Assembly (NCBI GenBank): GCA_964525555.1
Contig: CAZGHN010000006.1
Coordinates: 74,805 to 138,804, forward strand
DNA length: 64,000 nucleotides
Source: an uncultured bacterium
GTDB taxonomy: Bacteria; Hydrothermota; UBA3072
Direction: 5' to 3'
The notes under the pieces were generated by a model that ran no database searches, was not told where the DNA came from, and was given only the letters and a program-made list of their open reading frames with translations. Of this stretch, positions 2,207 to 60,846 are shown one piece after another (position 1 is the first letter of the stretch; every line of letters starts with the position of its first letter). Made by a program: the position numbers and the translations under genes.

Positions 2207-2872
2207 ATGATTGCAAAATTTAATCTATATGATTTCGTAGCAGCGGTAATACCTGGAATTCTATTTATCTGGGTATTTTCTTTGTTCTCGAGTTCCATAG
2301 ATATTCCTATTACTGGTGGACTTGCTGAAACCTCAATTCTTGTGGCTTTGGGATATGTGATTGGGATGATGCTACAAGGAATTAGCCAATTATTCACAGA
2401 AAAGATTTTATTGATACTTTGGGGTGGTTTTCCGTCTGCACGTTGGCTTCTCGAAGAGGATAATAAATTCAGCAGAGAATATAAAAACAAATTAAAAAAA
2501 TTAGTTGAAGATAAATATTCTGTTAAAATTGACGACAAACTGTCCAAAGAAGAACGTCTGAAGAAAAACCAAGAAGTTTTCTATCTTTGTTACAATGCCG
2601 TTGAAAAAGAGCGAATTAGCGACAGGCCTTATATATTCAATGCGCATTATGGTCTATTCAGATGCCTTCTAACCACATTTATTCTACTTTTTTTTGTTGA
2701 GCTGTACGCTCTTTTAATAGATAAACAGCAAAATAAAGCCGTTATCTATAGTGTTCTAATTCTTAGTATCATTGGTATAATAGTAAGTTATTTTCGTGCG
2801 AAACAGAGAGGCGAGGATTTTGCTAAATCTATCTATGATCTTTTTTTGGTGCGATTTTCAGAACGAGAGTAG
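2207..2872 (+). CDS. membrane protein (two N-terminal and two C-terminal TM helices), first gene of the MBL/E2-E1-JAB operon; possible effector
   Basis: Hydrophobic helices FVAAVIPGILFIWVFSLF, ILVALGYVIGMMLQGI, LLTTFILLFFVELYALLI, VIYSVLILSIIGIIVSYF; RBS AAAGGAGG before ATG; stop 16 nt before next gene. Confidence 0.55.
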   Translation: MIAKFNLYDFVAAVIPGILFIWVFSLFSSSIDIPITGGLAETSILVALGYVIGMMLQGISQLFTEKILLILWGGFPSARWLLEEDNKFSREYKNKLKKLVEDKYSVKIDDKLSKEERLKKNQEVFYLCYNAVEKERISDRPYIFNAHYGLFRCLLTTFILLFFVELYALLIDKQQNKAVIYSVLILSIIGIIVSYFRAKQRGEDFAKSIYDLFLVRFSERE

Positions 2873-2888
2873 CTAGGGAGGGTAATAG

Positions 2889-3956
2889 ATGTCAAACGTA
2901 GCAAAAGACATAATCATTCCAACTGAGCCTAATATCTTCCGAACAATATTCCTCTATGTCGGACAAGGAGACTCTACATTGCTAGTAGTCCCTGCGGGAG
3001 ACGGGTATAAGTATGTATTAATAGATTCAAATTATGACGAAGCCGCTGGTGGTATAGATATTATCAAACTCCTTGAGAACCTTTTCGAAGAAGAAGACGA
3101 AGGTTTAGATGTTTATATAAACACCCATCCCCATAAAGATCATCTCGGAAAGGTTAGGGAAATATATGAAAAGATAGGTATTGGCCAATTATGGCATTCA
3201 GGGCACAAGCCAGGCGGCGAGCATAATGAATCTTATAAAGACCTCGAATTTGTAATCAAAAAACTTGGGGAAGAAAATGTATTTCGCCTTCGAGGTAGCA
3301 GGGAAGAAAACAAATTAGATGAAGAAAAAATTATACTAGGCGACATAAATTACAACATTTTGGGCCCTGCCGATTATGTATCCGATGAAATAGAAGACGA
3401 AAAACCCAAAGAAAGATATACTAGGATTCATGAGCAATGCGCGGTAATTCGATTTAAATACGGAGAAGAAGAGAAACAGATACTCATTACTGGAGATGCA
3501 GATTACAAAGCATGGAAAGAACATATTACTGATTACCACGCGGATAGACTTCCTTCGACAGTGTTAAATGCTGCTCACCATGGTTCAAGGTCTTTTTTCT
3601 GGAAAGATGATAATATGGAGGAAGACCCTTACAAAAAACACTTAGAGAAAATCAAACCGACTTATATTACAGTTAGTGCCCCAAAAGAAAAGGAAAGTAG
3701 GCACGGCCACCCTCATAAAGAAGCCTTGAAGTTATACAAGGAAGAAGTAGGAACTGATGATAAGGTTTTTCATTTAGGCAAGAAAAGAGAATGCATAATT
3801 GTTGATATATACGCCGATGGTGATATAGACCTCTATCCTAATGATGAGTTGGTTAAGAGATATGGAAAAAAGAACGGAGACAATGGGGGTGACGACAAAA
3901 GAACAGGGATTCCGCCAACAGTCACAAAAATCGACAAGAAACCAATGGGTACTTGA
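2889..3956 (+). CDS. metallo-beta-lactamase-fold hydrolase (ComEC/Rec2-like MBL subfamily)
   Basis: GQGDS near N-terminus and HxHxDH motif THPHKDH (nt 3122-3142); later His/Asp ligands (HSGH, TGDADY, AAHHGS); strong RBS GGGAGGG; stop overlaps next start (TGATG). Confidence 0.75.
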   Translation: MSNVAKDIIIPTEPNIFRTIFLYVGQGDSTLLVVPAGDGYKYVLIDSNYDEAAGGIDIIKLLENLFEEEDEGLDVYINTHPHKDHLGKVREIYEKIGIGQLWHSGHKPGGEHNESYKDLEFVIKKLGEENVFRLRGSREENKLDEEKIILGDINYNILGPADYVSDEIEDEKPKERYTRIHEQCAVIRFKYGEEEKQILITGDADYKAWKEHITDYHADRLPSTVLNAAHHGSRSFFWKDDNMEEDPYKKHLEKIKPTYITVSAPKEKESRHGHPHKEALKLYKEEVGTDDKVFHLGKKRECIIVDIYADGDIDLYPNDELVKRYGKKNGDNGGDDKRTGIPPTVTKIDKKPMGT

Positions 3957-6301
3957 TGGAATGGTTCGCTCGTCACACTGGCTGGTTATATAGAGAAACA
4001 AGGGAACTTTCAAAAAATTCAATCTACAGTGAACAGCACCAATTTATAGACAAAACACTCATATCTAGCGGTAATATCTTAGTCCATAAGATAAAAACAG
4101 AATACTTTCCGATTTTAATCGTATATCCTGAAGCTACACCTTATGTCCCTCCTACGATATACCTTTTAGAAAATGAGATAAGTGAGGAAACAGCGAAAGA
4201 ATATTCGGAGCTTTCTCCTGAAGAGATAAGAAAAAGCGTAAAGGATAACATTGCATTTTTCTATAGGCGACATCAGAATGAAGATGGAAGCGTATGCTTT
4301 GTTGAAAGGGGTGACTTACATGATGAAAACCCAGAGAAATATCCTATTGAAAACATAATTAAAAGGTTGAGGGTATGGCTGTCTGGAAAGAAGATACCAA
4401 AGGACAGTCGTGAAGTTGAACTGTTTTATCATTTTCCAAACAGAACTTACGAAATTCAGTATCTCCTGCCGGATTTGTTCTTTGATAGGGAAATAGTAAA
4501 AGGAAAATTCTTTGCAGGACTGTCCAGCCTTATTACAGCAAAATACTTTACAGATGGTACCGAGAAAAGGACATTCATGGGAGTAATGATAGTCGGGGAA
4601 ACACAAGGAGGTGTGTCTCTTCCTCCCAAGTATTATGTAAAAAAACAGCTAATTCTATTTACTCACATTCCGGATATAGAGCATTTGATAACAAATAATG
4701 AGGAAAAAGCAAAGAAAATAGAAAATGGGGAATTAATAGAAGGACACTGGTGGAATATTACTAAAGAGCCTCTACCCTTTTCAAAATTAAATGAGCTTGC
4801 AAAATATATCGGTAACAATGATGAGGTAAAAGGATTTGATATGATGGTAGAAAGCTTAGAATCTGAATTGAAAGCATTTGAAGACTTCATTCACGTAGGA
4901 ATCAGATTTCCCGGAAGGTATAGAGAAAGAGATTGGCAAATGTTTAGACTCAACAAAGGAAGCCGTCCACCAATTATTGTATCCCAAAGGGAAGAATTGA
5001 AACAGCGGGTGCTCGATTACTCTATCGAAGCAGTGTATCAGGAGTATCTTACTGATGATTATTTCCACATGCGAAATAAGGGAAGAGCCGATAGAAGTAT
5101 CTTGAAGAATAAAACTATATCAATTATCGGTTGTGGTGCGCTTGGCTCTGAAACTACTGATGCACTGAGTAAAGCCGGAATAGGAAGATTTATTCTAGTA
5201 GATAGAGAAGTGATGAGGGCTCACAATACTGTTAGGCATAGTCTGGGTATAAATAAAGTAAGCATACCTAAGGCATGTGGTATGGCGGAACATTTGATTC
5301 TTCACAATCCTTTTATAAATATTGAATGGGAACATGAAGACATTCTGCTTGCCAAGATCGAAGATTATTTGCCCGAGGGTGCTATTGGGGTTTCAACCAT
5401 AGCTGATGACAATATAGAAGCTTACCTTAATGAAATAGCCATGAGTCAGGGAAGAACAATCTTCTATTGTAGGGCTTTGCGTGGTGGGAAAGCCGCGCGC
5501 ATATTCAGGGTCGTTCCGCAGATAGATGCATGCAAGACTTGTTTGGGGCTTTATCTCAGAGATAAAAATCCCTTTTTTATTAATATCCCAGAAGATGAGA
5601 GTCTTCCGGTTATAACAAATGAGTGCAACAACCCAGTAAGGCCTGCGAGTGCGGCCGATATGAAAATGATCTCTGGAGTTTTTGCGAGAATCATCATTGA
5701 TTTCCTACAGGGTAAGAGAACAGATAACAACCATTGGATTTGGACATCCGAATCTCTGGAAGGATTGAATATGGAAAATTCAACATATGGGTTTATAAAT
5801 GCAGAAAGCATAGCACCACACCCTCATTGTCTTGTTTGCCAGAAATTGGAAGACGCGAAAGTATATATTTTAAAAGATGTATTGGACTTCATGAAACGGG
5901 AAGCAACAAAATCTGGTAAAATCGAAACAGGGGGAGTTTTAATTGGACACATGTTGGCTAAAGGTGAGTATAAAATTTTAAAAGCAAGTAAGCCTGGCCC
6001 AAATGCTATAAGAACCGAGAATCGCTTTGAGAAAGATGAAAAATATTGTCAAAAAGTGCTTTTGGATGCTTTTGAAGAGCTCGATGATCAAGGCCTTTAT
6101 TTAGGAGAATGGCATTATCATCCTTTGGGTAGCAACGAACCAAGCGGAATAGATATCAATAGCCTAACAGAGATAGCAATTCAAGACAACTACCGGATAG
6201 ACAAACCAATAATGATAATATTATCACCGAAGTTGGAATATGCAATTACAATTCATAATAGGTTTGGCCGATGTGTTAAAATACCCTTGAAGATTGTATG
6301 A
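3956..6301 (+). CDS. E2(UBC-like)-E1(ThiF/MoeB-like)-JAB/MPN(JAMM) triple-domain ubiquitin-like conjugation enzyme
   Basis: N-terminal UBC-like signature YPEATPYVPP...RRHQNEDGSVCF (HPN-like motif plus Cys, nt 4271-4297); central Rossmann ISIIGCGALGSETTDALSKAGIGRFILVDREV (nt ~5123-5200); C-terminal JAMM motif E...HYHPLGSNEPSGID matching HxHx7Sx2D (nt 6113-6160). ATG 3956 used; ORF track begins at TTG 3953. Confidence 0.8.
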   Translation: MEWFARHTGWLYRETRELSKNSIYSEQHQFIDKTLISSGNILVHKIKTEYFPILIVYPEATPYVPPTIYLLENEISEETAKEYSELSPEEIRKSVKDNIAFFYRRHQNEDGSVCFVERGDLHDENPEKYPIENIIKRLRVWLSGKKIPKDSREVELFYHFPNRTYEIQYLLPDLFFDREIVKGKFFAGLSSLITAKYFTDGTEKRTFMGVMIVGETQGGVSLPPKYYVKKQLILFTHIPDIEHLITNNEEKAKKIENGELIEGHWWNITKEPLPFSKLNELAKYIGNNDEVKGFDMMVESLESELKAFEDFIHVGIRFPGRYRERDWQMFRLNKGSRPPIIVSQREELKQRVLDYSIEAVYQEYLTDDYFHMRNKGRADRSILKNKTISIIGCGALGSETTDALSKAGIGRFILVDREVMRAHNTVRHSLGINKVSIPKACGMAEHLILHNPFINIEWEHEDILLAKIEDYLPEGAIGVSTIADDNIEAYLNEIAMSQGRTIFYCRALRGGKAARIFRVVPQIDACKTCLGLYLRDKNPFFINIPEDESLPVITNECNNPVRPASAADMKMISGVFARIIIDFLQGKRTDNNHWIWTSESLEGLNMENSTYGFINAESIAPHPHCLVCQKLEDAKVYILKDVLDFMKREATKSGKIETGGVLIGHMLAKGEYKILKASKPGPNAIRTENRFEKDEKYCQKVLLDAFEELDDQGLYLGEWHYHPLGSNEPSGIDINSLTEIAIQDNYRIDKPIMIILSPKLEYAITIHNRFGRCVKIPLKIV

Positions 6302-6576: not shown

Positions 6577-7368
6577 ATGAAGCTTGATGATGTAGAGATA
6601 TCGAAAGCGATAATTGATAACTACTACAAAAAATTGCTGGATTCCTTAGAGCTGGATGTGGCTCTTGTCGGGGCGGGTCCTTCAAATCTTATAGCTGGAA
6701 TACTTTTAGGAGAAAAGAAAATTAAAACTGCTGTTTTTGAATCAAAGCTCGCTCCGGGTGGAGGTGTTTGGGGTGGGGGAATGATGTTTAATGAGGTGGT
6801 TGTTCAGGATTCGGCTTTGCATATTTTGGATAAAGTCGGTGTGGATTATAAAGAAAAAAAGAAAGGATACTATACCGCGGACAGCGTTGAATTGGCTTCG
6901 ACTTTAATTTCAAAATGCGTTAAATCGGGAGTAAAAATATTTAACCTTATTAAAGTTGTGGATGTCATGTTCAGAGAGGAAGATGGCGAGAAAAAGGTTA
7001 ATGGACTTGTGCTTCAATGGTCTCCGATTGAGCATATTGGATTACACGTAGACCCCTTAACGGTAAGAGCTAAATTTGTTGTAGACGGAACCGGACATCC
7101 CGCAGAAGTTTGTTCTGTTCTTTCAAAGAAAATAGATGCGAGGCTCAGTACTAGAACGGGTAAAGTGATTGGTGAAATGTCTATGTGGGCTGATAGGGGG
7201 GAGGAATTGACTGTTAGTAATACTTCGGAGGTTTTTCCCGGTCTTTTTGTAACCGGTATGGCTGCAAATGCTGTAAAGGGCGCTCCGCGCATGGGTCCCA
7301 TTTTTGGAGGCATGTTGCTTTCGGGTGAGAAAGTCGCAAAGATTATCTCACAGAGGACACAACAGTAA
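6577..7368 (+). CDS. thi4: thiazole synthase, Thi4 family
   Basis: Dinucleotide-binding motif VALVGAGPSNLIAG; Thi4-like length and layout; next to thiE. Confidence 0.75.
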   Translation: MKLDDVEISKAIIDNYYKKLLDSLELDVALVGAGPSNLIAGILLGEKKIKTAVFESKLAPGGGVWGGGMMFNEVVVQDSALHILDKVGVDYKEKKKGYYTADSVELASTLISKCVKSGVKIFNLIKVVDVMFREEDGEKKVNGLVLQWSPIEHIGLHVDPLTVRAKFVVDGTGHPAEVCSVLSKKIDARLSTRTGKVIGEMSMWADRGEELTVSNTSEVFPGLFVTGMAANAVKGAPRMGPIFGGMLLSGEKVAKIISQRTQQ

Positions 7369-7449
7369 TTATGAATGTTGAATGTTAAATGTTGAATTCA
7401 AAACTCAAAATTCAAAATCCTAAATCCCAATTTGAAGGTTTAAAGCAGA

Positions 7450-8046
7450 ATGGATTTTAATTTCGGGGCATATGTTATAACGAGTAAAGATCACGTAAAA
7501 ATAGCCCGGGAGGCGTGCGAAGGCGGGGCACGCGTTGTTCAATATAGAGATAAAACTTCCATAAAGCAAGAAGTGTTGAATATTGCCGATAAAATCAGAG
7601 AGATAACGAGTAATTTTAATTCATTATTTATTGTTAATGATTTTATCGATATAGCTTTAATGTCGGGAGCGGATGGGGTTCATCTGGGACAGGATGATAT
7701 GCCGCTGCCGAGGGCAAGAAAAATCGTTCCTGATAATTTTATTATCGGTGTTTCCACCAATTCGTTGGAACAGGCGCTTAAGGCAGAAGAAGCCGGAGCC
7801 GATTATATCGGAATTGGTCCTGTTTTTGCTACGCCTACTAAAAAAAATTATAAGCCCATCGGGCTTTCTGCAGTTAAGGGAGTACTTGCCAGTGTAAGAA
7901 TTCCTGTTGTTGCTATTGGAGGTTTAAATCTTGATAATATCGGTGAGTTAACTGGAATAGGTGTTAGAAACGTTGCAATGGTAAGAGCCTTTCAAGAAAA
8001 TACAAGGGAAAAAGTCGAAAAAGTTAATTTTTTGCTGAAAGTATAG
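7450..8046 (+). CDS. thiE: thiamine-phosphate synthase
   Basis: ThiE-like TIM-barrel motifs GADGVHLGQDD and IGPVFATPTK. Confidence 0.8.
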   Translation: MDFNFGAYVITSKDHVKIAREACEGGARVVQYRDKTSIKQEVLNIADKIREITSNFNSLFIVNDFIDIALMSGADGVHLGQDDMPLPRARKIVPDNFIIGVSTNSLEQALKAEEAGADYIGIGPVFATPTKKNYKPIGLSAVKGVLASVRIPVVAIGGLNLDNIGELTGIGVRNVAMVRAFQENTREKVEKVNFLLKV

Positions 8047-8056
8047 AAAACATCCC

Positions 8057-8084
8057 TTGACATTAGAGAAATACTGTATAGATT
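8057..8084 (+). promoter_or_regulatory. candidate promoter cccTTGACA-N16-TAGATT for the por operon
   Basis: TTGACA 8057-8062; RBS AAAGGGAG before ATG 8107. Confidence 0.4.
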
Positions 8085-8106: not shown

Positions 8107-8697
8107 ATGGCTAAGGATTTAATCGAGATTAGATGGCACGGCAGAGGAGGCCAGGGAGCTAAGACTGCTGCTTTGCTTTTCGGGGAAGCCGCCATCGATA
8201 CAGGTATGTATATTCAGGCATTTCCCGAATACGGCCCGGAGAGAACCGGCGCACCGGTCAACGCTTTCAATCGTTTGAGCGGAAAACCTATAAGATTGCA
8301 CAGCGGTGTTGACAGTCCACAGATTGTTCTGGTTCTCGACCCGAGTTTACTTGATACTGTGGATGTACTTAAAGGTCTGGGAGAAGGCGGCATTCTTATA
8401 GTTAATACTTCTGATTCGCCTGGAGAAATAAGAAAAAAATTGTCTGTTGATTCCAAAATAAAGGTTTATACTGTTGATGCTTCAAAAATAGCAATGGATA
8501 AAATAGGACTAAATAAACCCAATACTCCGATGCTCGGAGCATTATCTAAAGTTACGGATATTTTGGATTACAAGAAAATGCTTAAGAGTATCGAACATAA
8601 ATTGAAGATCAAATTCAGAGGTAAACCGGAAGAAATAGTGACAAAAAATATGGAAGCTATAAAAGCTGCTCATGAAGAAACGAAGGGAGAAGGCTGA
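8107..8697 (+). CDS. porG: pyruvate/2-oxoacid:ferredoxin oxidoreductase, gamma subunit
   Basis: N-terminal RWHGRGGQGAKTAA typical of POR gamma; gamma-delta-alpha-beta gene order. Confidence 0.8.
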   Translation: MAKDLIEIRWHGRGGQGAKTAALLFGEAAIDTGMYIQAFPEYGPERTGAPVNAFNRLSGKPIRLHSGVDSPQIVLVLDPSLLDTVDVLKGLGEGGILIVNTSDSPGEIRKKLSVDSKIKVYTVDASKIAMDKIGLNKPNTPMLGALSKVTDILDYKKMLKSIEHKLKIKFRGKPEEIVTKNMEAIKAAHEETKGEG

Positions 8698-8990
8698 TGG
8701 CAAAGAAGAAGGAAGGATGGAAAGAACTTCCTATTGGTGCGATTATAGTCGAACCCGGTTCAAGTGAAAAATTCAAGACCGGAGACTGGAGAGAAGGAAA
8801 GAAACCGTCTGTAGATAAGAATAAATGTACGAATTGTATGATATGTTGGATTTCCTGCCCTGATTCCGCGATTATTGTTAAAGACGGAGAAATGAAAGGT
8901 TTTAATCTGGATTATTGTAAAGGTTGCGCGATTTGTGCTTCACAATGTCCTGTTAAAGCCATAGAGATGGTCGACGAGGAGGAAGAATGA
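8697..8990 (+). CDS. porD: pyruvate/2-oxoacid:ferredoxin oxidoreductase, delta subunit (2x[4Fe-4S] ferredoxin)
   Basis: Two Cys clusters CTNCMICWISCP and CKGCAICASQCP. Confidence 0.8.
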   Translation: MAKKKEGWKELPIGAIIVEPGSSEKFKTGDWREGKKPSVDKNKCTNCMICWISCPDSAIIVKDGEMKGFNLDYCKGCAICASQCPVKAIEMVDEEEE

Positions 8991-10156
8991 AGGTTGCGGC
9001 TAAGACTGCCAATGAAGCTATGGCTGAAGCAATGAGACAGATAAACCCCGATGTGGTGGCTGCTTATCCTATAACACCTTCAACGGAGATAGTCCAGATT
9101 TTTTCGCAGTTTGTCGCGGATGGACTGGTCGACACTGAGTTTGTACCTGTCGAATCTGAACACTCGGCTGCAAGCGCCTGTACCGGTGCAGCTGCAGCTG
9201 GTGCAAGGGTAATGACTGCTACGGCATCTCAGGGCCTTGCTCTTATGAACGAGGTCCTTTTTGTTACAGCGGGACTTCGTCTTCCAATGGTTATTTGTGA
9301 GATAGCAAGAACCCTATCAGCTCCGATTAATATTCACTGCGATCATTCCGATACTATGGACCAGAGAGATACGGGATGGATGCAATTTTATGCGGAGGAT
9401 TCTCAGGAAGCTTACGACCTCGTTATACAGGCAATGAAGATTTCAGAAGAGGCGTTCCTGCCGGCTATGGTATCGGCAGATGCTTTTATTCTATCTCATT
9501 CTCTACAGCGAATAGATATGCTGGATGATAAAGAGGTGCAGGGTTTTATAGGTAAGCATAAATCTCCATTTAACCTTCTCGATACAGATAATCCTATTAC
9601 TGTTGGACCTCTTGACCTTCAGGATTATTATTTCGAGCATAAAAGATCTGAAGCCCAGGCTATGAAGGATTCGCATAAGCATGTAAAAAAGGTGTTTGGT
9701 GAATTTGGTAAGAAATTCGGAAGAAAGTATGGTATGATCGAAGAATATAAGATAAAAGATGCGGAAAGGGCTATTGTTATAATGGGCTCCACTGCAGGTA
9801 CAGCTAAAGAAGTGGTCGACATCTTAAGGGCTGATGGCGAGAAAGTAGGTCTTGTAAAAATCTGTACTTTTAGACCCTGGCCCACAGAGGAAGTAAATAA
9901 AGCATTGTCAAATGTTAAATATCTTGCCGTTATGGATAGGGCTGAAGGGATGAGTGGTTTTGGGGCTCCTCTTTTTACAGAGATACGCTCTTCCCTTTAT
10001 GATGGAAGCAAAAAGCCCGATACATACGGTTACGTATATGGATTGGGAGGAAGGGATGTGAAAACCGAAGACTTAAGATTAGTCTTTGATGATTTAAAAA
10101 AGGTGAAAAATGGTAAGAAACTTAATAGAAATAATTATTTGGGAGTGAGGGAATAG
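8987..10156 (+). CDS. porA: pyruvate/2-oxoacid:ferredoxin oxidoreductase, alpha subunit
   Basis: Length and domain order of POR alpha; overlapping start/stop with neighbours. Confidence 0.8.
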   Translation: MKVAAKTANEAMAEAMRQINPDVVAAYPITPSTEIVQIFSQFVADGLVDTEFVPVESEHSAASACTGAAAAGARVMTATASQGLALMNEVLFVTAGLRLPMVICEIARTLSAPINIHCDHSDTMDQRDTGWMQFYAEDSQEAYDLVIQAMKISEEAFLPAMVSADAFILSHSLQRIDMLDDKEVQGFIGKHKSPFNLLDTDNPITVGPLDLQDYYFEHKRSEAQAMKDSHKHVKKVFGEFGKKFGRKYGMIEEYKIKDAERAIVIMGSTAGTAKEVVDILRADGEKVGLVKICTFRPWPTEEVNKALSNVKYLAVMDRAEGMSGFGAPLFTEIRSSLYDGSKKPDTYGYVYGLGGRDVKTEDLRLVFDDLKKVKNGKKLNRNNYLGVRE

Positions 10157-10164
10157 GAGGTTTT

Positions 10165-11094
10165 ATGGGTGTAAATTTAAAAGAGTTATCTAAAAAAGAA
10201 GATTTGTTTGCCTCCGGGCATAGGGCATGCGCGGGTTGTGGTCCTGCGATAGCATTAAGACAGGCGCTTTTAGTTTCGGGAAAAGATACAATCGTGAGTT
10301 TTGCAACAGGTTGTATGGAAGTCGTATCTACAATATTCCCATACTCGTCCTGGAAAGTACCTTATATGCATTCTCTTTTTGAAAATTCTGCAGCTACAAT
10401 GAGTGGAATTGAGTCCGCTTATAATGCTTTAAAAAGAAAAGGGAAAGTAAAAAAGAATATAAACTTTATTGCATTCGGCGGAGACGGCGGAACTTATGAT
10501 ATTGGTCTGCAATCTCTATCAGGAGCAATGGAACGCGGGCATAACATGCTCTATATCTGTTACGATAACCAGGCTTACATGAATACCGGTATTCAGAGAT
10601 CCGGTGCTACTCCTTATGGCGCGAGCACAACAACCTCGCCGGCCGGAAAAGTAATTCCCGGTAAAAATAGACGTAGGAAAAACCTAACAGAAATTATGGC
10701 TGCGCATAATATTCCTTACGTTGCTCAAGCTTCTATCTCCGAATGGAGAGATTATATGACCAAGATAGAGAAAGCTCTTTCTCTTCCCGGTCCAAAATTT
10801 ATGGTCGTTTTTGCCCCATGTCAGCTTGGATGGTATTACAAAAAAGAAAACACAATTAAAATTGCCGATATGGCTGTTAAATCCAGATTTTGGCCGTTAT
10901 ATGAAGTAGAGAATGGTGTACATAAGATTACAAAGGATCCCAAAAAGGTTATTCCTGTTGAAGAATGGTTGAAGTTACAGGGAAGATTCAGGCATTTATT
11001 CAAAGGAGAAAACAGAAAAATTATTGAAGAAATCCAACAAGAAGTAGACGCCAACTGGGATAGATTAAAGAAGTTAGAGGAGGCAGGCGTTTAG
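10165..11094 (+). CDS. porB: pyruvate/2-oxoacid:ferredoxin oxidoreductase, beta subunit (TPP-binding)
   Basis: Cys ligands CAGCG...C and TPP motif GGDGG...YDNQAYMNTG. Confidence 0.8.
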   Translation: MGVNLKELSKKEDLFASGHRACAGCGPAIALRQALLVSGKDTIVSFATGCMEVVSTIFPYSSWKVPYMHSLFENSAATMSGIESAYNALKRKGKVKKNINFIAFGGDGGTYDIGLQSLSGAMERGHNMLYICYDNQAYMNTGIQRSGATPYGASTTTSPAGKVIPGKNRRRKNLTEIMAAHNIPYVAQASISEWRDYMTKIEKALSLPGPKFMVVFAPCQLGWYYKKENTIKIADMAVKSRFWPLYEVENGVHKITKDPKKVIPVEEWLKLQGRFRHLFKGENRKIIEEIQQEVDANWDRLKKLEEAGV

Positions 11095-11580
11095 ATGCCA
11101 ACTAAAGAAGAATCATTTGAAGCAGAATTTCAATCGATAAAAGATAATTTGGAAGACCTTTGCAGGGAGACAAAAGCGCTCTCGGTCTTGCTTATAGATA
11201 AGGCCGGGCAACTTATAACCTCTGCCGGGAATGTTTCTTCTATTGATATACCATCTTTTGCCACTCTATCGGCGGCTGATTTCGCAGCCACTTCAAATCT
11301 TGCAGATTTGATCGGAGAACATGATTTTTCAACTCTGTTTCACCAGGGAGTTCAAAAGAGTATTTATGTTTCATTAATTGCGGATAAGGTAATTCTTGCA
11401 GTTATTTTTACAAAGGAGACAACGCTGGGTTTGGTGCGTATAAAGGTTAAAAAAACGGCAGAAAAACTGGCAGGTTTGTTCGGAAAGATATTCGATGTTC
11501 TTGAGAGTGAGTATTCTGGAGCGGTAGATGATGATTTTATTAGTGAAGCGGAAACGGAACTTGATAGTCTTTTTGAATAA
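11095..11580 (+). CDS. mglB: Roadblock/LC7-domain protein (MglB-like GTPase-activating partner)
   Basis: Roadblock-like alpha/beta pattern; immediately upstream of MglA-like GTPase; start abuts porB stop. Confidence 0.6.
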   Translation: MPTKEESFEAEFQSIKDNLEDLCRETKALSVLLIDKAGQLITSAGNVSSIDIPSFATLSAADFAATSNLADLIGEHDFSTLFHQGVQKSIYVSLIADKVILAVIFTKETTLGLVRIKVKKTAEKLAGLFGKIFDVLESEYSGAVDDDFISEAETELDSLFE

Positions 11581-11592
11581 AATGGAGAAAAA

Positions 11593-12171
11593 ATGGCGCT
11601 TATAAATTATTCTTCGAAAGAGATAAATTGTAAAATAGTATATTACGGTCCTGGACTTGGCGGTAAAACTACGAATATCAAACACATATATTCAAAGGTA
11701 AATCCCGATCACAGGGGAAAATTGATGAGTCTCGATACAGAATTGGATAGAACACTTTTCTTTGATTTCTTACCTGTAGATTTGGGTACTGTTAAAGGTT
11801 TCTCAGTCCATTTTCATCTTTACACCGTTCCCGGTCAAGTTTATTATAATGCTTCCAGAAAACTTATATTGAAAGGTGTTGATGGGTTAATCTTTGTTGC
11901 CGATTCCCAGATAGAAAGATTTGAAGATAATATAGATTCGATGGAAAATCTTCACGACAATTTAAACGAATATCATAAGAAAGTTGAAGAGATACCTTTA
12001 GCAATTCAGTATAATAAAAGAGATTTGCCTAATATTGTTTCTCTTAATGAATTGGAAGACGCTTTGAATCCGCGAGGCGTTTTCTTCTGTGAAGGTGTTG
12101 CTGTAGAAGGTATTGGGGTTTTTGAACCTCTTAAAGAAGTTTCTAAAAAAGTCTTAAGAAAACTTAGATAG
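11593..12171 (+). CDS. mglA: MglA-like Ras-family small GTPase
   Basis: P-loop GPGLGGKTT, switch region and NKRD G4 motif. Confidence 0.7.
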   Translation: MALINYSSKEINCKIVYYGPGLGGKTTNIKHIYSKVNPDHRGKLMSLDTELDRTLFFDFLPVDLGTVKGFSVHFHLYTVPGQVYYNASRKLILKGVDGLIFVADSQIERFEDNIDSMENLHDNLNEYHKKVEEIPLAIQYNKRDLPNIVSLNELEDALNPRGVFFCEGVAVEGIGVFEPLKEVSKKVLRKLR

Positions 12172-12173
12172 CT

Positions 12174-12205
12174 TTAACGCGGCACAGCCGCGTTAATTTT
12201 GAATG
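12174..12205 (+). terminator. intrinsic terminator ending the por-mglBA operon
   Basis: Perfect 10-bp stem TTAACGCGGC-aca-GCCGCGTTAA followed by a T-rich run. Confidence 0.65.
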
Positions 12206-12235: not shown

Positions 12236-12583
12236 TTACAGTTTCTCTTTACTGGTTTTTACTATTGAGGTTAAAATTTTAATAATGTCATCAATTTCTT
12301 TAATATATATTTCAACATCACATTTTACAATTTGAGATCTTTGAATTAATCTTAGCCAATATTTAGTTTCACGAGCTTCTTTTGAAGAAATAGCCATTTT
12401 GTTTGTAAAGTCCTTTTTGCTCTGAGCCGCAGAAGCTTCTTCGATATTTGCTCCAATACTTGTTCCACTTCTTAGAACTTGCTTGGACAGAACGTATTCA
12501 TTATTTGCAATCATTTGTCTATACAGATCGATTATCTTTAATGCAAAATCAAAACTTTTATCTTTAATTAAATTCTCTTTCAT
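12236..12583 (-). CDS. four-helix-bundle protein (23S rRNA intervening-sequence protein family)
   Basis: Family-like motif GANIEEASAAQSKKDF...SSKEARETKYWLRLI. Confidence 0.65.
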   Translation of the reverse strand: MKENLIKDKSFDFALKIIDLYRQMIANNEYVLSKQVLRSGTSIGANIEEASAAQSKKDFTNKMAISSKEARETKYWLRLIQRSQIVKCDVEIYIKEIDDIIKILTSIVKTSKEKL

Positions 12584-54957: not shown

Positions 54958-55233
54958 TTACATTGTTTTAATAAAAACATAAAAAAGAAAAAATCCTATA
55001 CAAACGCAAAGAAAACCCATTACCCTAATGTATATAATATACGATTTGCTTTTCACCCAATCTACATAGGAAGAAATATCAACGTAACGATTCCGATTGA
55101 ATATAGACATATTATATATGGCTAAATTTTGAGTCTTATAGGGGAACAGCAATACTAATACCCCCACACTGATGAGAAAGAAACCGAATAACAGAACCTT
55201 CACATTAACAAGATTTTCTGAACCCATTGGCAC
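54958..55233 (-). CDS. small two-TM membrane protein immediately after rhs (candidate immunity protein)
   Basis: 91 aa, two hydrophobic helices; starts 16 nt after the rhs stop. Confidence 0.45.
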   Translation of the reverse strand: MPMGSENLVNVKVLLFGFFLISVGVLVLLFPYKTQNLAIYNMSIFNRNRYVDISSYVDWVKSKSYIIYIRVMGFLCVCIGFFLFYVFIKTM

Positions 55234-55248
55234 TCTCTCCTTTAAATC

Positions 55249-58200
55249 TTACCACTCAATTTCTTCAAACCTATAAATCTTCCCAGAATCCCAGTAATAA
55301 GTCGCACCTAACATAGGAACATAAACACCACCTTCCGTAGTCCAACCACTTCCAAAGAAATAATCTCCTTGAACGCCAATTATAGAGCCTCCGGCTGTCT
55401 CAATAGACTTTCTGGTCAGGCATTTTGAAAGTTCGTCTTCAGTTGGCGCTCGACGCCATCGGTTCATCTTACACATAGTACCCGCTGACAAACTACCAGA
55501 TAAAGGTATTAAAGATTTTCCCAGCTGTGGGCCATGTCCAAAGTACACATTCCCATACCTATCCAACTTTAAATTTATACTATATCCAATAATAGATCCT
55601 AAATTAATAGTAAGATTAAGATAATCAGGCCATTGTCCTCTCCAAAACTCATTAACAGCTTCTTGCATCGTAGGTCCTTGATAAATACCAAGATAAAAAC
55701 CCAAATAATTGAAAAAATGATACGGATCCATACTTGATGCGGTAACGATAATAGGATCCATTAAAAATATATCATCACCTATTTGGGTCGGTTCCAATCC
55801 CCATGGGTCAAAGAAATTTACTGGATCGTTATGGCAATACACATAAGGATTAAGTGTCTGCGGACGCTCTAAATTCACAAGTAGTGGATACAAGTTAATC
55901 GGATCAGGTGTAAAAAACCTACCGATATCCGCACTGTAATACCTCGCTCCAAAATAATGGAAACCGGTCTTATCTTTTTCTTTCCCAGTGAATTCACGGT
56001 TGTCATTATATGTACCATTGGACCAGCGTAAATTCCCAAACGCCTCATATAATCTTTCTTTTACAACATTACCATCTTCATCTGTTATCATAAGCGGTGA
56101 ACCGAGACGGTCAAGATGATAAAAATGAAGGTCTCCGTCATTTTCAGTCGCAAGAAGACGGTTCCCCGCATAGATATATCTTTTGGGAGCTGTAGTCTCA
56201 CTATCGTCATCCTCGAGAATGAGATTACCCGCGATATCATAGAAGTAATTAAAAATTTCCTTAGTTCCTGCCGGATACTGTGTAATTTTCTGTCTTATTC
56301 GCTGACTCCCTTTGTAATAATAATTGTACACTCTATCGGTTTCCATTGAATTAAGCGAAACAAGATTTCCATCCACATCATAGGTAAGACTGGCATCTTC
56401 CGAGACGCTGGTAAATCCATTTATCCTGCCATTTTCATCGTATGAATAGTTAAATTCACCGTCATTCTTTAACCTGTTGGTTCCGGAATAATAAGTATAA
56501 TTAGTACTATTGACGCTTTTCCTATTTCCGACCGTATCATAGGTGAAAATGAGTGTGTAACCCGGAATATAGGGATAACGACCGTAATAAATATTTTTCT
56601 TATCCTGCGTAAGTCTTCCGAGTTTATCGTATTGGTAAGATTTTACAATATCTCCAGGCCCGTCATCATGCCTGACTTCTTGATACACCTCTCCTCGTTT
56701 ATTGTAGCAAAATTGTGCTATATAGGGGTTGGCGGAAGGAATATTCTTTATTTCCATCCAGTACATCCAATTCCTTGGTCTATATGCAAATGTATCGGTA
56801 ATTCCACCGGGGAAATTTATGCCTCTTAAGAGGCCTGCTGCTGTGGATGAAAGATTGATCGTTTTGTAATCGTTAATTTCTACCGACGAGATATTGCCAA
56901 GTTTATCATATTCATATTCGACTTTGTACTCGTCCGGGTATTCCAGTTTAGTTAATCTTCCCCACAGATCGTAGGAATATTTGAATGTCTGTTCATCTAT
57001 ATCACCAATTAATGGTATTACAAGCTTTTCCCCAAGGTTTCCGAATTTATCGTAAAAATATACTTCCCTTACATTTGGATTTTGGAAACCCGTAAGTCTT
57101 CCTTTTGGAAAATTTAATCCTGAAGGTGCAGTATAAGGTGTACCTTTTATAGTATAGTTATCGTAGAAATATTCCTCCAGTGTATCAGGGAAAAACATGT
57201 AGCTTAATGAATCGTTTGTTATCACAAGGACTGATTTAATTGAATCTAGCCAGTTTTGTGATCCATGTGCAGGATAACCAGGAATAGCGGAATCAGTATG
57301 TTGGATCGCCATCCCACAAATAGTATTCCCAATATAATCCTCGCCTGGGTAAAGAAGAAAAGAATGATCTTGTTGCCAGGTTTTATTAATTGAAGAAAAG
57401 CCTTCTTGAATGGTGAACTCGCTACCAAAAGTATCGGCCGGATTTTCGAAATACACGAATAATGAACATATTCCGAAATAATTAGGAGGGTCAAATACCC
57501 AGGTTTTTGAATTAAATCTTATCCTTATCTCTTCACCTTCATCTTGCATTACATTTGCATCCTCAATGTCCCAGTATAGCCGACCAAGTTCGCGGTGGGG
57601 ATACATCCAGCTTTTACCAGGCACATACAATAAAGTGTCTTCAACCATATAGAATAGTGTATCCGGAGCAGGATCATGTATAGCCGGATTGATTTTGGTT
57701 TTTAATCTACCAAGATTATCATAAGTATAATAGATTGAATCACCGATATTTGTTCTACGAAGCTTTAAATTCCCATCAGGATAATATTCGAATGAATCTA
57801 CGCCTCTGTCAGGACCTTCTCTACGGATTAGTTCACCTAACCAGTTATAGTTAAAATCAGTGAATTTTCCTTCTGCGCCTTCAATTTCTATTAAGTTTCC
57901 GTTTGCGTCGTAATCGTAATAAGTATGATAATCGAGAGCATCTATGACCTCTACCAAGCTGCCTGTTGCATCGTTAATTAATGTGGTATAATATCCTTTC
58001 TCATCTCTTACATCTGTTATATTCCCATTATATTCATAGGTAACAAATTCGGCTCCAGGATCTTCAGAGCTTTTGGGATATTCTATCTCGGTTACTCTTC
58101 CAAGTGCATCGAAAGTCTTTTTTACTGTGTCCGCGTTTGCTGCACTGTTAAACCGTAGTGCTGTTTCCTTATTCATACGCCCATTATTATCATAAAAATA

Positions 58201-60846
58201 TTCCTTTATTACATGCTCGCCAGGATCTCCTAATACCGAATCTTGTTTAAGCCTTCCTAACTGGTCGTAACAGTAGATTATAGTGCTTGAGTCCGAAGAA
58301 GAAGAAAAAGATTTTGCTTTTGCAATCCTGTCGAAATCGTCATATTTATATTTGTTTAAAACATCGCTGCCGATTTTATCCAGAGTAAGTCTTCCGTAAC
58401 AATCATATTCGAATTCTCTTGAAACTTCATTCTTATCAGTGTGCCCTATAAGTTGCCCATCCGAATTAAAGTCGAAGTCCTCTTTTGAGCCATCAGGATA
58501 TATTACTGTGTCAGGGAATACCTCATTAGAACAGTAATCGAATTGAGATTCCTCTCCCATGTAATCTCGCATTTTTACTAGATTCCCGCAAATGTCATAC
58601 CAGTATTCCTGTGTACGGGATTCGGAATTGTTTGTCCATTCTATTTTCTTGGTGAGGTTCCCGCGGATTTTAAAATCAGCACCAAAGTCTTCAGAATCAT
58701 GAAAACCCGGGTTAGAAATGTTGCTTAAATTAGTTTCATCATACCGAAAATAAGTTTTTCCTATTCTTTGTCCTGTAATTTTAAATTTGTGTATTGCTAT
58801 CGGAAGATTGCACAACACACGATGATGGAAATTCCAACCTCCTTCTCCACCATAGCAATCCTCACACCATTCTGCAAGCTCGATATATAGAGCATCTACT
58901 TCATGTTTAAAATGCTTTATCTCTTTCCAGCTGTCATCTAAATCCAGGTCCTCGTAAGAAATTTTTTCGTTATCAACCTTATCTAAGTCTAAGCCTGGCA
59001 TAATAGCTGTAGTAAATACAGTTAGCAAGTATGGAAAATCAAATTCTTCAATACTTTCCCATCCTATACCTGTACATTCCACATCCCCTCGATAAATGTA
59101 TTCTCTTATATTACCAAACCTATCATAACTGTTATATTCGTATAGTTCTACAATATCTCCAATACCTACCTCAAGATCAGATGGATCTTTCTGTACGGCT
59201 TTGCATTTCAATGTTGGGCGTAAATGAATTGGCGGCATAAACAAATAGAGACTATCTATTGCCCAATATAAACGCGTCAATTCTAAAGTGTCTCCTTCTT
59301 TATCAAATTTTACTACCTTGTAAGGTTTACCGTAAATAAATTTCCTTGCCTTAGGGATGACCCTTTCGGAGATTACCACCTCATCTCTACCTTCATGTTC
59401 GAAAAATCTGTAATGATCCCCATTCTCCAGATATTCATTATTAATATGCCAGTAAACTATACTATCTCCTTCGGGCATAACAACCGCGCATTTTTTATAC
59501 ATGGGATAATATCCAAATATTTGCGAATTTACCCCATGAGACCAATTATCTTTAAAATCTCCATGAGTACATTCCATTTCACCTACAGAACTCACCGCGA
59601 GTGAATCATGACCTGGATAATGATATTCATACACTAAAGTTTTGGAATCCTCAGAAAGAAAAACTTCTTTCTTTTTGATTCTGCGGTATTTGGTAGGCGC
59701 GGCGATGCCTGAGCCAGACACCGTCTCATACTCATAACTGTATTCCGCGCCGTCAGGAGTGATAAATCTGACGAGTTCCCCTGTATTATTATCATAAAAA
59801 AACTGATAAGAAGGTTTCATTTTTTGCCCTTCAAAATGAAAAGATATCGAATCCAGAAGTGCGTGTTCACGAACATACCAGTATTCAATTGCATCGTCTA
59901 AATGTTTAGCCGTATAGTAGAATTTAACCTTGTAACAACCATCGTTTATCCAATGAACTAAGCTATCAATAAGATAAAACTTATCCCAACAAGGCCTATC
60001 TGGGTAAATAGGGTCTAACATTTTAGGATAAAATTTACAGTGAGAGGTAGGAGTAATAATACTATCGGGGATTCTGCCAGCCGGAGGGCAAGGGGCCGCA
60101 TCCTGCCAGGTAAATCGCACATAATTGCCATTCCTGTCCTCCATCTCTGTTAGCATATAATCAAGTCTGCGTCTCTTCTCCGGTTCTGATGGGTACTCAG
60201 GATCGGGACCGTAATCCAGTATATTCTCGAAGGTATATTTATATTCTGGCGTTGCAACAAAAGCTCTAAGATTACTTGCGAAACCAATCCAATTTTTTTC
60301 ACCTAAAACATGCCACAACCAAGCATCAAAAACATTGAAAGTTTTTTGCACAGTGTAAAACTGCCCATTAATACACGTGAAACCCACATCGCCCGTAGCA
60401 ATATTGCCAGTTCCCGGGGATCCGGGAACAGAAAATTCTCCCGGCATTACATTCCAACCTAAACCACAGGTACCTATATCCCCAGTAACCAAAAAAGCAT
60501 CATTTAGCGCCACATTAGAATGCGAATAGCAATCACCTGGAGTGAGCTGCGTCACCGATAAGGGAGAACCTCGATAGGTTAAATATACATTATAATCTTT
60601 ATTTCCTCTCATTGGCAAACTTGTAAGTTTTATTTTGAGAGACACAGTCCCGTTTGAAACATCTATATTTTCCGCAACAGTATTAGTCGATATGGTCGTT
60701 TTGTTAAAACCTACCGAGTATGCATCAAAACCGTGTGAATACATATCCTCAGTAATTTCATCAGAGGTTTTTATTTCAAGCGAATCATAAGCGGCAAGGG
60801 GGTTAGCTACGGAACTCCCAATGTTGCCAAATAAAAATACTATCAT
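55249..60846 (-). CDS. rhs: full-length RHS/YD-repeat polymorphic toxin
   Basis: 1865 aa; many YD repeats (e.g. YEYDANGNLIEI); core end FYHLDRLGSPLMITDEDG...DPWGL followed by a ~230-aa unique C-terminal tip. Confidence 0.85.
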   Translation of the reverse strand: MIVFLFGNIGSSVANPLAAYDSLEIKTSDEITEDMYSHGFDAYSVGFNKTTISTNTVAENIDVSNGTVSLKIKLTSLPMRGNKDYNVYLTYRGSPLSVTQLTPGDCYSHSNVALNDAFLVTGDIGTCGLGWNVMPGEFSVPGSPGTGNIATGDVGFTCINGQFYTVQKTFNVFDAWLWHVLGEKNWIGFASNLRAFVATPEYKYTFENILDYGPDPEYPSEPEKRRRLDYMLTEMEDRNGNYVRFTWQDAAPCPPAGRIPDSIITPTSHCKFYPKMLDPIYPDRPCWDKFYLIDSLVHWINDGCYKVKFYYTAKHLDDAIEYWYVREHALLDSISFHFEGQKMKPSYQFFYDNNTGELVRFITPDGAEYSYEYETVSGSGIAAPTKYRRIKKKEVFLSEDSKTLVYEYHYPGHDSLAVSSVGEMECTHGDFKDNWSHGVNSQIFGYYPMYKKCAVVMPEGDSIVYWHINNEYLENGDHYRFFEHEGRDEVVISERVIPKARKFIYGKPYKVVKFDKEGDTLELTRLYWAIDSLYLFMPPIHLRPTLKCKAVQKDPSDLEVGIGDIVELYEYNSYDRFGNIREYIYRGDVECTGIGWESIEEFDFPYLLTVFTTAIMPGLDLDKVDNEKISYEDLDLDDSWKEIKHFKHEVDALYIELAEWCEDCYGGEGGWNFHHRVLCNLPIAIHKFKITGQRIGKTYFRYDETNLSNISNPGFHDSEDFGADFKIRGNLTKKIEWTNNSESRTQEYWYDICGNLVKMRDYMGEESQFDYCSNEVFPDTVIYPDGSKEDFDFNSDGQLIGHTDKNEVSREFEYDCYGRLTLDKIGSDVLNKYKYDDFDRIAKAKSFSSSSDSSTIIYCYDQLGRLKQDSVLGDPGEHVIKEYFYDNNGRMNKETALRFNSAANADTVKKTFDALGRVTEIEYPKSSEDPGAEFVTYEYNGNITDVRDEKGYYTTLINDATGSLVEVIDALDYHTYYDYDANGNLIEIEGAEGKFTDFNYNWLGELIRREGPDRGVDSFEYYPDGNLKLRRTNIGDSIYYTYDNLGRLKTKINPAIHDPAPDTLFYMVEDTLLYVPGKSWMYPHRELGRLYWDIEDANVMQDEGEEIRIRFNSKTWVFDPPNYFGICSLFVYFENPADTFGSEFTIQEGFSSINKTWQQDHSFLLYPGEDYIGNTICGMAIQHTDSAIPGYPAHGSQNWLDSIKSVLVITNDSLSYMFFPDTLEEYFYDNYTIKGTPYTAPSGLNFPKGRLTGFQNPNVREVYFYDKFGNLGEKLVIPLIGDIDEQTFKYSYDLWGRLTKLEYPDEYKVEYEYDKLGNISSVEINDYKTINLSSTAAGLLRGINFPGGITDTFAYRPRNWMYWMEIKNIPSANPYIAQFCYNKRGEVYQEVRHDDGPGDIVKSYQYDKLGRLTQDKKNIYYGRYPYIPGYTLIFTYDTVGNRKSVNSTNYTYYSGTNRLKNDGEFNYSYDENGRINGFTSVSEDASLTYDVDGNLVSLNSMETDRVYNYYYKGSQRIRQKITQYPAGTKEIFNYFYDIAGNLILEDDDSETTAPKRYIYAGNRLLATENDGDLHFYHLDRLGSPLMITDEDGNVVKERLYEAFGNLRWSNGTYNDNREFTGKEKDKTGFHYFGARYYSADIGRFFTPDPINLYPLLVNLERPQTLNPYVYCHNDPVNFFDPWGLEPTQIGDDIFLMDPIIVTASSMDPYHFFNYLGFYLGIYQGPTMQEAVNEFWRGQWPDYLNLTINLGSIIGYSINLKLDRYGNVYFGHGPQLGKSLIPLSGSLSAGTMCKMNRWRRAPTEDELSKCLTRKSIETAGGSIIGVQGDYFFGSGWTTEGGVYVPMLGATYYWDSGKIYRFEEIEW

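Follow-up and report, generated by a model that had tools for sequence, protein, structure and literature searches.

A predicted 2-oxoacid:ferredoxin oxidoreductase operon that continues into an MglB/MglA polarity GTPase pair in a WOR-3-related bacterium, and its conservation among relatives

Results

A por gene cluster runs directly into mglBA

The window analyzed here is the whole 64,000-nucleotide (nt) stretch taken from contig CAZGHN010000006.1 of an uncultured bacterium, whose closest genomes are metagenome-assembled genomes (MAGs) with the label candidate division WOR-3, a group now named Caldifarciminota by the NCBI taxonomy; its G+C content is about 36%. At 8107–12171 the (+) strand carries 6 consecutive genes, porG-porD-porA-porB-mglB-mglA, encoding the 4 subunits of a 2-oxoacid:ferredoxin oxidoreductase followed by a Roadblock/LC7 protein and a Ras-like GTPase (Table 1). 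The listing of open reading frames (ORFs) gave spacings of -4 to +12 nt throughout the run. The stop codon of porB (TAG, 11092–11094) abuts the ATG of mglB at 11095 in the sequence TAGATG, and the Shine-Dalgarno sequence of mglB, GAGGAGG, is embedded in the final porB codons. A preliminary description of this DNA had given exactly these ORFs, with their abutting or overlapping junctions, and had regarded the passage from por to the GTPase genes as unbroken, which is borne out by gaps of at most 12 nt, a common strand, and the stop–start contact between porB and mglB.

Signals of transcription were found at both ends of the gene run. A consensus scan detected a sigma-70-like promoter with 10 of 12 consensus matches, located 23 nt ahead of porG. 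Downstream of mglA, a 10-bp stem (6 GC) at 12174–12196 is followed by UUUUG, and its fold had an energy of −15.1 kcal/mol (z = −3.08 against shuffles). The preliminary description called this a strong intrinsic terminator; the hairpin is real, although with such a short U tract the word "strong" is slightly generous, and its conservation does not extend to all close relatives, in which the mglA gene and a convergent glycosyltransferase gene often overlap. Inside the unit, terminator-like sites were about as frequent as expected by chance (5 versus 4.7 in shuffled sequence), and the same held for promoter-like sites (21 versus 17.3 ± 3.9). An internal promoter and terminator ahead of the Roadblock gene would have separated the 2 parts of the run; at that position there is no intergenic space and no terminator above chance, and the one promoter-like site nearby is weak. 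No Rfam family, including a thiamine pyrophosphate (TPP) riboswitch upstream of thi4 or por, and no tRNA was found in the window.

Table 1. Genes and expression signals of the por-mglBA unit, in window coordinates.
Feature	Position	Strand	Remarks
sigma-70-like promoter, TTGACA-16 nt-TAGATT, including the conserved ATACTGTATAG block	8057–8084	+	consensus scan
porG (porC), gamma subunit of the four-subunit 2-oxoacid:ferredoxin oxidoreductase	8107–8697	+	first gene; Pfam POR, TIGR02175
porD, delta subunit, two [4Fe-4S] ferredoxin motifs	8697–8990	+	1-nt overlap with porG; Fer4 families, TIGR02179
porA, alpha subunit	8987–10156	+	4-nt overlap with porD; POR_N, PFOR_II
porB, TPP-binding beta subunit	10165–11094	+	8-nt gap after porA; TPP_enzyme_C
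Shine-Dalgarno sequence of mglB, GAGGAGG, inside the porB codons ...LEEAGV*	11077–11083	+	sequence read
mglB, Roadblock/LC7 GTPase-activating protein	11095–11580	+	0-nt gap after porB; Robl_LC7, Myxococcus xanthus MglB match
mglA, Ras-like polarity GTPase (group 1 MglA type)	11593–12171	+	12-nt gap after mglB; M. xanthus MglA match
intrinsic-terminator-like hairpin with short U run	12174–12205	+	scan and fold

The encoded proteins are ordinary members of known families

All 4 Por proteins pass subfamily models of the pyruvate/2-ketoisovalerate type of 2-oxoacid:ferredoxin oxidoreductase. PorG matched Pfam POR (2.9e-42) and TIGR02175 (199.6 bits; cut-off 81.1), PorD matched TIGR02179 (99.8; cut-off 60.05) and contains 2 CxxCxxCxxxCP motifs in its translation, PorA matched the Pfam families POR_N (2.3e-72) and PFOR_II (1.5e-27), and PorB carries TPP_enzyme_C. 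Among the NCBIfam models, those for pyruvate:ferredoxin oxidoreductase (POR) outscored those for 2-ketoisovalerate:ferredoxin oxidoreductase (VOR). The top match of PorA was PorA_Arch with 494.7 bits, under the equivalog cut-off of 550, and PorB scored 401.6 against the PorB model NF008819 (cut-off 405), compared with a lower 341 against the VOR-beta model. Since PorA and PorB fall just under the equivalog cut-offs, pyruvate is the likely but unproven substrate of the enzyme. Relatives also carry a paralogous operon, por2, whose beta subunit passes the VOR-beta cut-off (422 versus 405) and is therefore VOR-like. The window genes share the gamma-delta-alpha-beta order and the domain set of the four-subunit porGDAB systems of Thermotoga, Pyrococcus, and methanogens, the closest NCBIfam models being PorC, PorD, PorA, and PorB; however, no known por operon has been described with GTPase genes, whereas the operon in the window carries mglBA.

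MglA aligned with the M. xanthus MglA structure 6hjh_A over residues 1–191 of 192 (E = 1.6e-76). Its P-loop GxxxxGK[ST] is present as GPGLGGKT at residues 19–26, the arginine finger as R53 (TELDRTLFFDF), and the NKxD motif as YNKRD. In proteins of the MglA family, the switch II motif TxxGQ has a threonine in place of the Ras aspartate, and its glutamine is catalytic; this motif occurs here in LYTVPGQ, with T78 and Q82 aligning column for column with M. xanthus MglA. MglB scored 39.3 bits against PF03259 Robl_LC7 (cut-off 23) and matched the M. xanthus MglB structure 6izw_B (E = 4.5e-30) over residues 5–160, C-terminal extension included, while against NF052242, a narrow equivalog model of the Thermus-type MglB, it reached 89.1 bits, below the cut-off of 200. 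The switch of a non-myxobacterium, Thermus thermophilus (3T12, 1J3W), is the same two-protein system (E = 9.9e-70 for MglA, and 1e-12 to 3e-13 for MglB), although its genomic context is unlike that of the window. Judged by their domains, motifs, and full-length structure matches, the 2 proteins are canonical full-length orthologues of the Myxococcus proteins, as the first reading of a Roadblock/LC7 protein and an MglA-like Ras-family GTPase had proposed. The order mglB-then-mglA is also that of M. xanthus mglBA, but in the window no promoter belonging to the pair itself was detected, and the pair is attached 3′ of a por operon.

The por-mglBA arrangement is conserved in 3 deep clades

We sampled the best 80 genome loci by MglA and the best 80 metagenome loci by MglB (numbered with the prefix L) and mapped the window genes onto them by tblastn; the frequencies reported here are those of samples, not of censuses. 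The por genes were located directly upstream of mglBA in 35 sampled loci and in 6 further places identified by exact-protein look-up, and after removal of near-duplicates there were 26 distinct PorA sequences from operons with mglB behind them. These relatives form 3 deep clades: clade i comprises MAGs labelled Zixibacteria (GCA_003501845) and Edwardsbacteria (GCA_040755715), clade ii comprises MAGs labelled WOR-3 (e.g., GCA_023129615), and clade iii is the clade of the window, down to L009, L010, and L100 (PorA 67–72% identical to that of the window). A tree of MglB plus MglA and a tree of PorA recovered the same 3 groups, indicating that the 6 genes were inherited as a block, and the flanking genes vary from clade to clade. 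PorB at 62–65% identity is also found in MAGs labelled Firmicutes, so the divergences are large.

At every locus of clade iii, the porB stop lies −1 to +1 nt from the mglB start, and the GGAGGAGG motif has been retained within porB. This junction with its Shine-Dalgarno sequence recurs in 22 loci whose MglB identities span 60–93%.

Some lineages show additional genes in or beside the unit. In an Edwardsbacteria MAG (L164/L165), a gene for a RelB-like antitoxin is inserted between porG and porD (L164 3844–4071), and an MJ0235/TumE toxin–antitoxin pair follows mglB at the place expected for mglA (L164 7731–8385); mglA was not seen in this MAG up to the contig end. In clade ii (L118, L132, L136, L137, and L169), a short co-oriented ORF begins about 10–15 nt after mglA, and its product starts with M-S/T-D/E-(I/V)-x-R-L-K-C-x-x-C-G, which suggests a zinc-ribbon-like N-terminus; the ORF is a candidate third gene of the clade ii module.

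Lineages that lost por kept its promoter ahead of mglBA

The gene order in L094 is fabH-por2GDAB-yebC-ruvCAB-porGDAB-mglBA. In a sister lineage of this locus, porGDA and most or all of porB were deleted, while mglBA and the por promoter were kept. L007 has kept the promoter and approximately the first 10 codons of porG, which run out of frame into the 90 terminal codons of porB, and the latter still abut mglB; in L008, L093, L095, L096, L098, and L099 the promoter and the porG start codon region are followed by 150–200 nt of decayed sequence and then by mglBA. The deleted operon is the POR-like one; por2, which is still nearby, is VOR-like.

The promoter block is common to the window, L002, L094, and the por-deleted L007, L008, L093, L096, and L098. 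Across the deletion lineages, the identity of this 30-nt block was 0.82 compared to 0.39–0.41 in its flanks, and the porG promoters of the window and L094 match this block. Because the promoter is conserved where mglBA is its sole remaining cargo, it is under selection there. These results provide strong, albeit indirect, evidence that the por promoter drives mglBA in the intact operon.

The L007 junction was also read at the level of its ORFs. Between 9154 and 9498 of that locus, a 21-codon porG′ leader ORF comes after the por promoter, and behind it is the 90-codon porB remnant, which is out of frame but still open. An SD-like GGGAGG precedes an internal ATG of the remnant, whose end is exactly the TTG start of mglB, and this arrangement may preserve translational coupling.

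mglBA and por also occur apart, and a dnaX-ybaB-recR string lies beside mglBA

Outside the por-mglBA loci, the GTPase pair was found in several other settings. In a large WOR-3 clade it comes after a cluster of glycosyltransferase genes (closed genome CP070705), a TA06-labelled lineage has it divergent from thiC on the (−) strand, and in other WOR-3 lineages it lies behind recR. Conversely, por1 orthologues, corresponding to the POR-like operon, occur with no mglBA behind them and are then followed by rho (Stahlbacteria, WOR-3 Cruoil), pgpA (Eisenbacteria), or serS (Firmicutes). A location of the GTPase pair elsewhere in relatives would count against the linkage, and this is in part what we found, in the recR, glycosyltransferase, and thiC contexts, even though por-mglBA is kept in 3 clades.

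The genes dnaX, ybaB, and recR are co-transcribed in Escherichia coli and conserved widely in bacteria. ORF and Pfam checks showed that (mglB)-mglA is immediately preceded by dnaX-ybaB-recR in essentially all of the Gemmatimonadota and Krumholzibacteriota loci sampled and in several WOR-3-like lineages (L011–L080, L146, L147, L155, L157, and L158). An Edwardsbacteria MAG has the order ybaB-recR-porGDAB-mglB, Eisenbacteria have dnaX-ybaB-recR-porGDAB, and Stahlbacteria have dnaX-ybaB-porGDAB-rho, the latter 2 with no mglBA. From these orders, por appears to sit within an ancient run of syntenic housekeeping genes whose last members are mglBA. The string thus carries mglBA or por-mglBA at its 3′ end in Gemmatimonadota, Krumholzibacteriota, Edwardsbacteria, and some WOR-3-like lineages, but it is no longer adjacent in the lineage of the window, where thi4-thiE precede por, or in L094, where ruvB does. 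Since the conservation of these unrelated replication and recombination genes beside mglBA reaches at least the same depth as that of por, adjacency by itself is weak evidence for a functional link between POR and MglAB.

In many Gemmatimonadota, a predicted membrane protein of about 104 amino acids (aa) replaces mglB between recR and mglA (L012 9508–9822). We also considered whether por2, which occurs near mglBA in Krumholzibacteriota, represents the same linkage, and rejected this because a deaminase gene and dnaX-ybaB-recR intervene and por2 is the VOR-like paralogue.

Genes around the unit

Immediately upstream of the TPP-dependent por operon, thi4 and thiE, for thiamine biosynthesis, occupy 6577–8046 (+). 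The Thi4 protein is a thiazole synthase of the archaeal/eukaryote type, and the thi4-thiE-por arrangement is conserved in the close relatives L002–L006 and L082–L091. On the other side, a gene for a four-helix-bundle protein of the 23S-rRNA-intervening-sequence family (12236–12583, −) is situated between mglA and convergent glycosyltransferase genes. Among close relatives, only L092 and L097 share this gene with the window; in those that do not have it, mglA overlaps or directly faces the glycosyltransferase gene and the terminator hairpin is absent.

Farther upstream, 3 genes at 2207–6301 (+) form a candidate defence-type cluster. They encode a Csx27-like, PDC-M48A-like protein (2207–2872, +), a metallo-beta-lactamase-fold protein with a PDC-M48B match (2889–3956, +), and a 782-aa fusion (3953–6301, +) that matched the PADLOC models E1-E2 and JAB, with ThiF at aa 377–592 and Prok-JAB at aa 642–758. 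We take these 2 PADLOC models to be of the Cap2/Cap3 type of the cyclic-oligonucleotide-based antiphage signalling system (CBASS). The fusion looks like a single-chain enzyme for ubiquitin-like conjugation and deconjugation, and no cyclase gene is visible at the cluster. A large gene at 55249–60846 (−) encodes an RHS-repeat protein of 1,865 aa, likely a polymorphic toxin, and the small unannotated ORFs at its 3′ end (e.g., 54958–55233) could be immunity genes. Type IV pilus, gliding, Frz, and RomR/RomX genes were looked for and none was found within the 64-kb window.

Discussion

The window contains a conserved gene run in which a por operon is followed, with almost no space, by the genes of a bacterial polarity switch. 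We consider it probable that porGDAB-mglBA is one polycistronic unit and that the linkage reflects history and promoter dependence, with no need for a direct link between POR and MglAB. Co-transcription of por and mglBA is well supported by the tight spacing, the conserved junction, and the fate of the promoter in the lineages that lost por. Transcription would start at the conserved promoter (8057–8084) and proceed to the hairpin at 12174–12205. The abutting stop and start codons and the ribosome-binding site inside porB suggest that mglB is translationally coupled to porB, by ribosomes that either terminate on porB or re-initiate at the adjoining start. By homology, MglA and MglB are expected to act as the usual GTP/GDP polarity switch, which may set the front–rear or pole identity of a polar machine, probably type IV pili. 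The sole cultured WOR-3 strain, sy37, bears pili but was seen to have no motility (PMC12285271). In evolutionary terms, mglBA would close an ancient run of housekeeping genes, dnaX-ybaB-recR-(por)-mglBA, in this region of the bacterial tree. Having no demonstrable promoter of their own in the lineage of the window, the GTPase genes would have become locked to the por promoter, the outcome being constitutive co-expression of a polarity module with a highly used catabolic enzyme. As we read the data, a signalling or physical connection between POR and MglA or MglB is neither indicated by them nor needed to account for them.

Several observations weigh against this interpretation. Selection for co-regulation would likewise lead to an adjacency that persists over 3 deep clades while the flanks change. 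The gap between porB and mglB, so constant in clade iii, varies between 13 and about 290 nt in the other 2 clades, and in clade i it reaches 130–290 nt and contains hairpins. In addition, the clade i locus L161, whose MglB is identical to that of L162 and L163, has a (−)-strand restriction–modification/KAP-NTPase block of more than 7 kb where por sits in the other 2, and homology with them starts only about 190 nt upstream of mglB, indicating that mglBA has its own promoter there. The long, hairpin-bearing gap together with L161 implies that operon status is lineage-specific. Within the window itself, a weak promoter-like sequence in porB (ATTACA-16-TAAAAT, 10835–10862; 9 of 12 matches) coincides with mildly raised synonymous conservation (0.70–0.75 versus a mean of 0.62) and may mark an additional internal promoter. 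Finally, the trees are neighbour-joining trees of short proteins, and the taxon names are the submitters' MAG labels. The island of L161 (1–6653, −) encodes an MmeI-type restriction–modification enzyme, a KAP NTPase, and an AAA_16/guanylate-cyclase protein, and it may be a defence-island insertion or replacement.

The preliminary description had proposed that the arrangement may link metabolic state to cell polarity or motility. In such a functional coupling, the MglA/MglB switch and POR would work together, with polarity, pili, or motility tuned to pyruvate/ferredoxin flux, or with MglAB positioning or regulating POR, loosely like the eukaryotic Rag/Ragulator Roadblock-GTPase nutrient sensors. 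The persistence of the adjacency in 3 deep clades with both flanks changing and the tight translational coupling in the window clade are in its favour, as is the fact that group 1 MglA has no other conserved neighbourhood on record (PMC4316618). However, the sister subclade discarded porGDA and most or all of porB yet retained mglBA with the promoter, and the identical-MglB strain of clade i has a restriction–modification/KAP block in place of por. In addition, mglBA lies elsewhere in many WOR-3 lineages, por1 orthologues precede rho, pgpA, or serS in others, and the unrelated dnaX-ybaB-recR genes are just as deeply conserved beside mglBA. No MglB–Por fusion protein was present among the 120 best MglB homologues (158–173 aa), and the literature searched offered no support for such a coupling. 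We therefore regard functional coupling as unlikely, and a direct metabolic input into polarity in particular as possible but unsupported, so that the proposed tie between metabolism and polarity is not upheld by the comparison with relatives.

The porB promoter-like sequence at 10835–10862 could instead mean that mglBA is expressed separately, from a promoter in the 3′ third of porB, the por transcript mostly ending or being processed before mglB. The mild peaks of synonymous conservation in porB (codons 211–235 and 261–285) would agree with this, and so would the deletion in L007, which kept exactly the last 273 nt or so of porB, and the evident presence of a separate mglBA promoter in clade i. 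Nevertheless, the site has only 9 of 12 matches, and such sites are not more common than in shuffles, as noted above. Neither L094 nor L007 has conserved its hexamers, and in L008, L096, and L098 the porB remnant has decayed while the por promoter was kept. With neither a terminator nor any space between porB and mglB, separate transcription units appear improbable here. An assembly chimera was rejected, and with it a chance juxtaposition is next to impossible, since more than 30 assemblies, produced independently from different samples and by different pipelines, show the identical junction.

With the single, promoter-sharing unit as the preferred reading, we compared the arrangement with what has been published. 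The survey of prokaryotic Ras-like GTPases by Wuichet and Søgaard-Andersen found that group 1 MglA neighbourhoods "vary widely", with PATAN-domain neighbours only occasional (PMC4316618), in line with the earlier remark that the present linkage is unusual. A precedent for a GTPase–Roadblock pair within a larger conserved operon is the Streptomyces conservon cvnABCD, which contains a group 2 MglA-like GTPase (PMC4316618); its partners are signalling proteins (a histidine kinase and CvnC) for which complex formation has been demonstrated, whereas the partner in the window is a metabolic enzyme. Literature searches combining MglA, MglB, and ferredoxin oxidoreductase returned only unrelated papers, apparently on the mgl genes of E. 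coli, and none was found for WOR-3 with MglA. A search on recR was swamped by matches to the word "recruit", and MglA, GTPases, and a por-mglBA operon go unmentioned in the recent WOR-3 papers that were checked. Both the conserved por-mglBA operon and the deeper dnaX-ybaB-recR-mglBA string thus appear to be unreported. What is new is the conserved genomic context and the mode of expression that it suggests, since both components are ordinary members of well-known families.

MglA and MglB are the model Ras-like polarity switch of bacteria, and almost all knowledge of them comes from Myxococcus. The present analysis adds 2 conserved contexts of mglBA in poorly studied phyla, one in which it shares a promoter with por and a deeper one behind dnaX-ybaB-recR in which por is apparently embedded. 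These contexts yield testable predictions on how the switch is expressed in organisms not known to glide, and the natural deletion variants behave like a promoter-mapping experiment. A more far-reaching proposal, which we consider doubtful, is that in WOR-3, Edwardsbacteria, neighbouring candidate phyla, Gemmatimonadota, and Krumholzibacteriota the 2 proteins are a housekeeping polarity module hard-wired to growth operons (por or dnaX-ybaB-recR) and not a dedicated motility regulator. Pole identity, pili, or cell-cycle organisation would then be proportional to energy metabolism or replication and, in the strongest form of the proposal, MglA-GTP or MglB would act directly on POR or its localisation. 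If a metabolic tie of this kind were true, it would constitute a prokaryotic parallel to eukaryotic nutrient sensing by Roadblock proteins and GTPases; if there is none, por-mglBA would be a clean example of the operon "lock-in" of unrelated genes.

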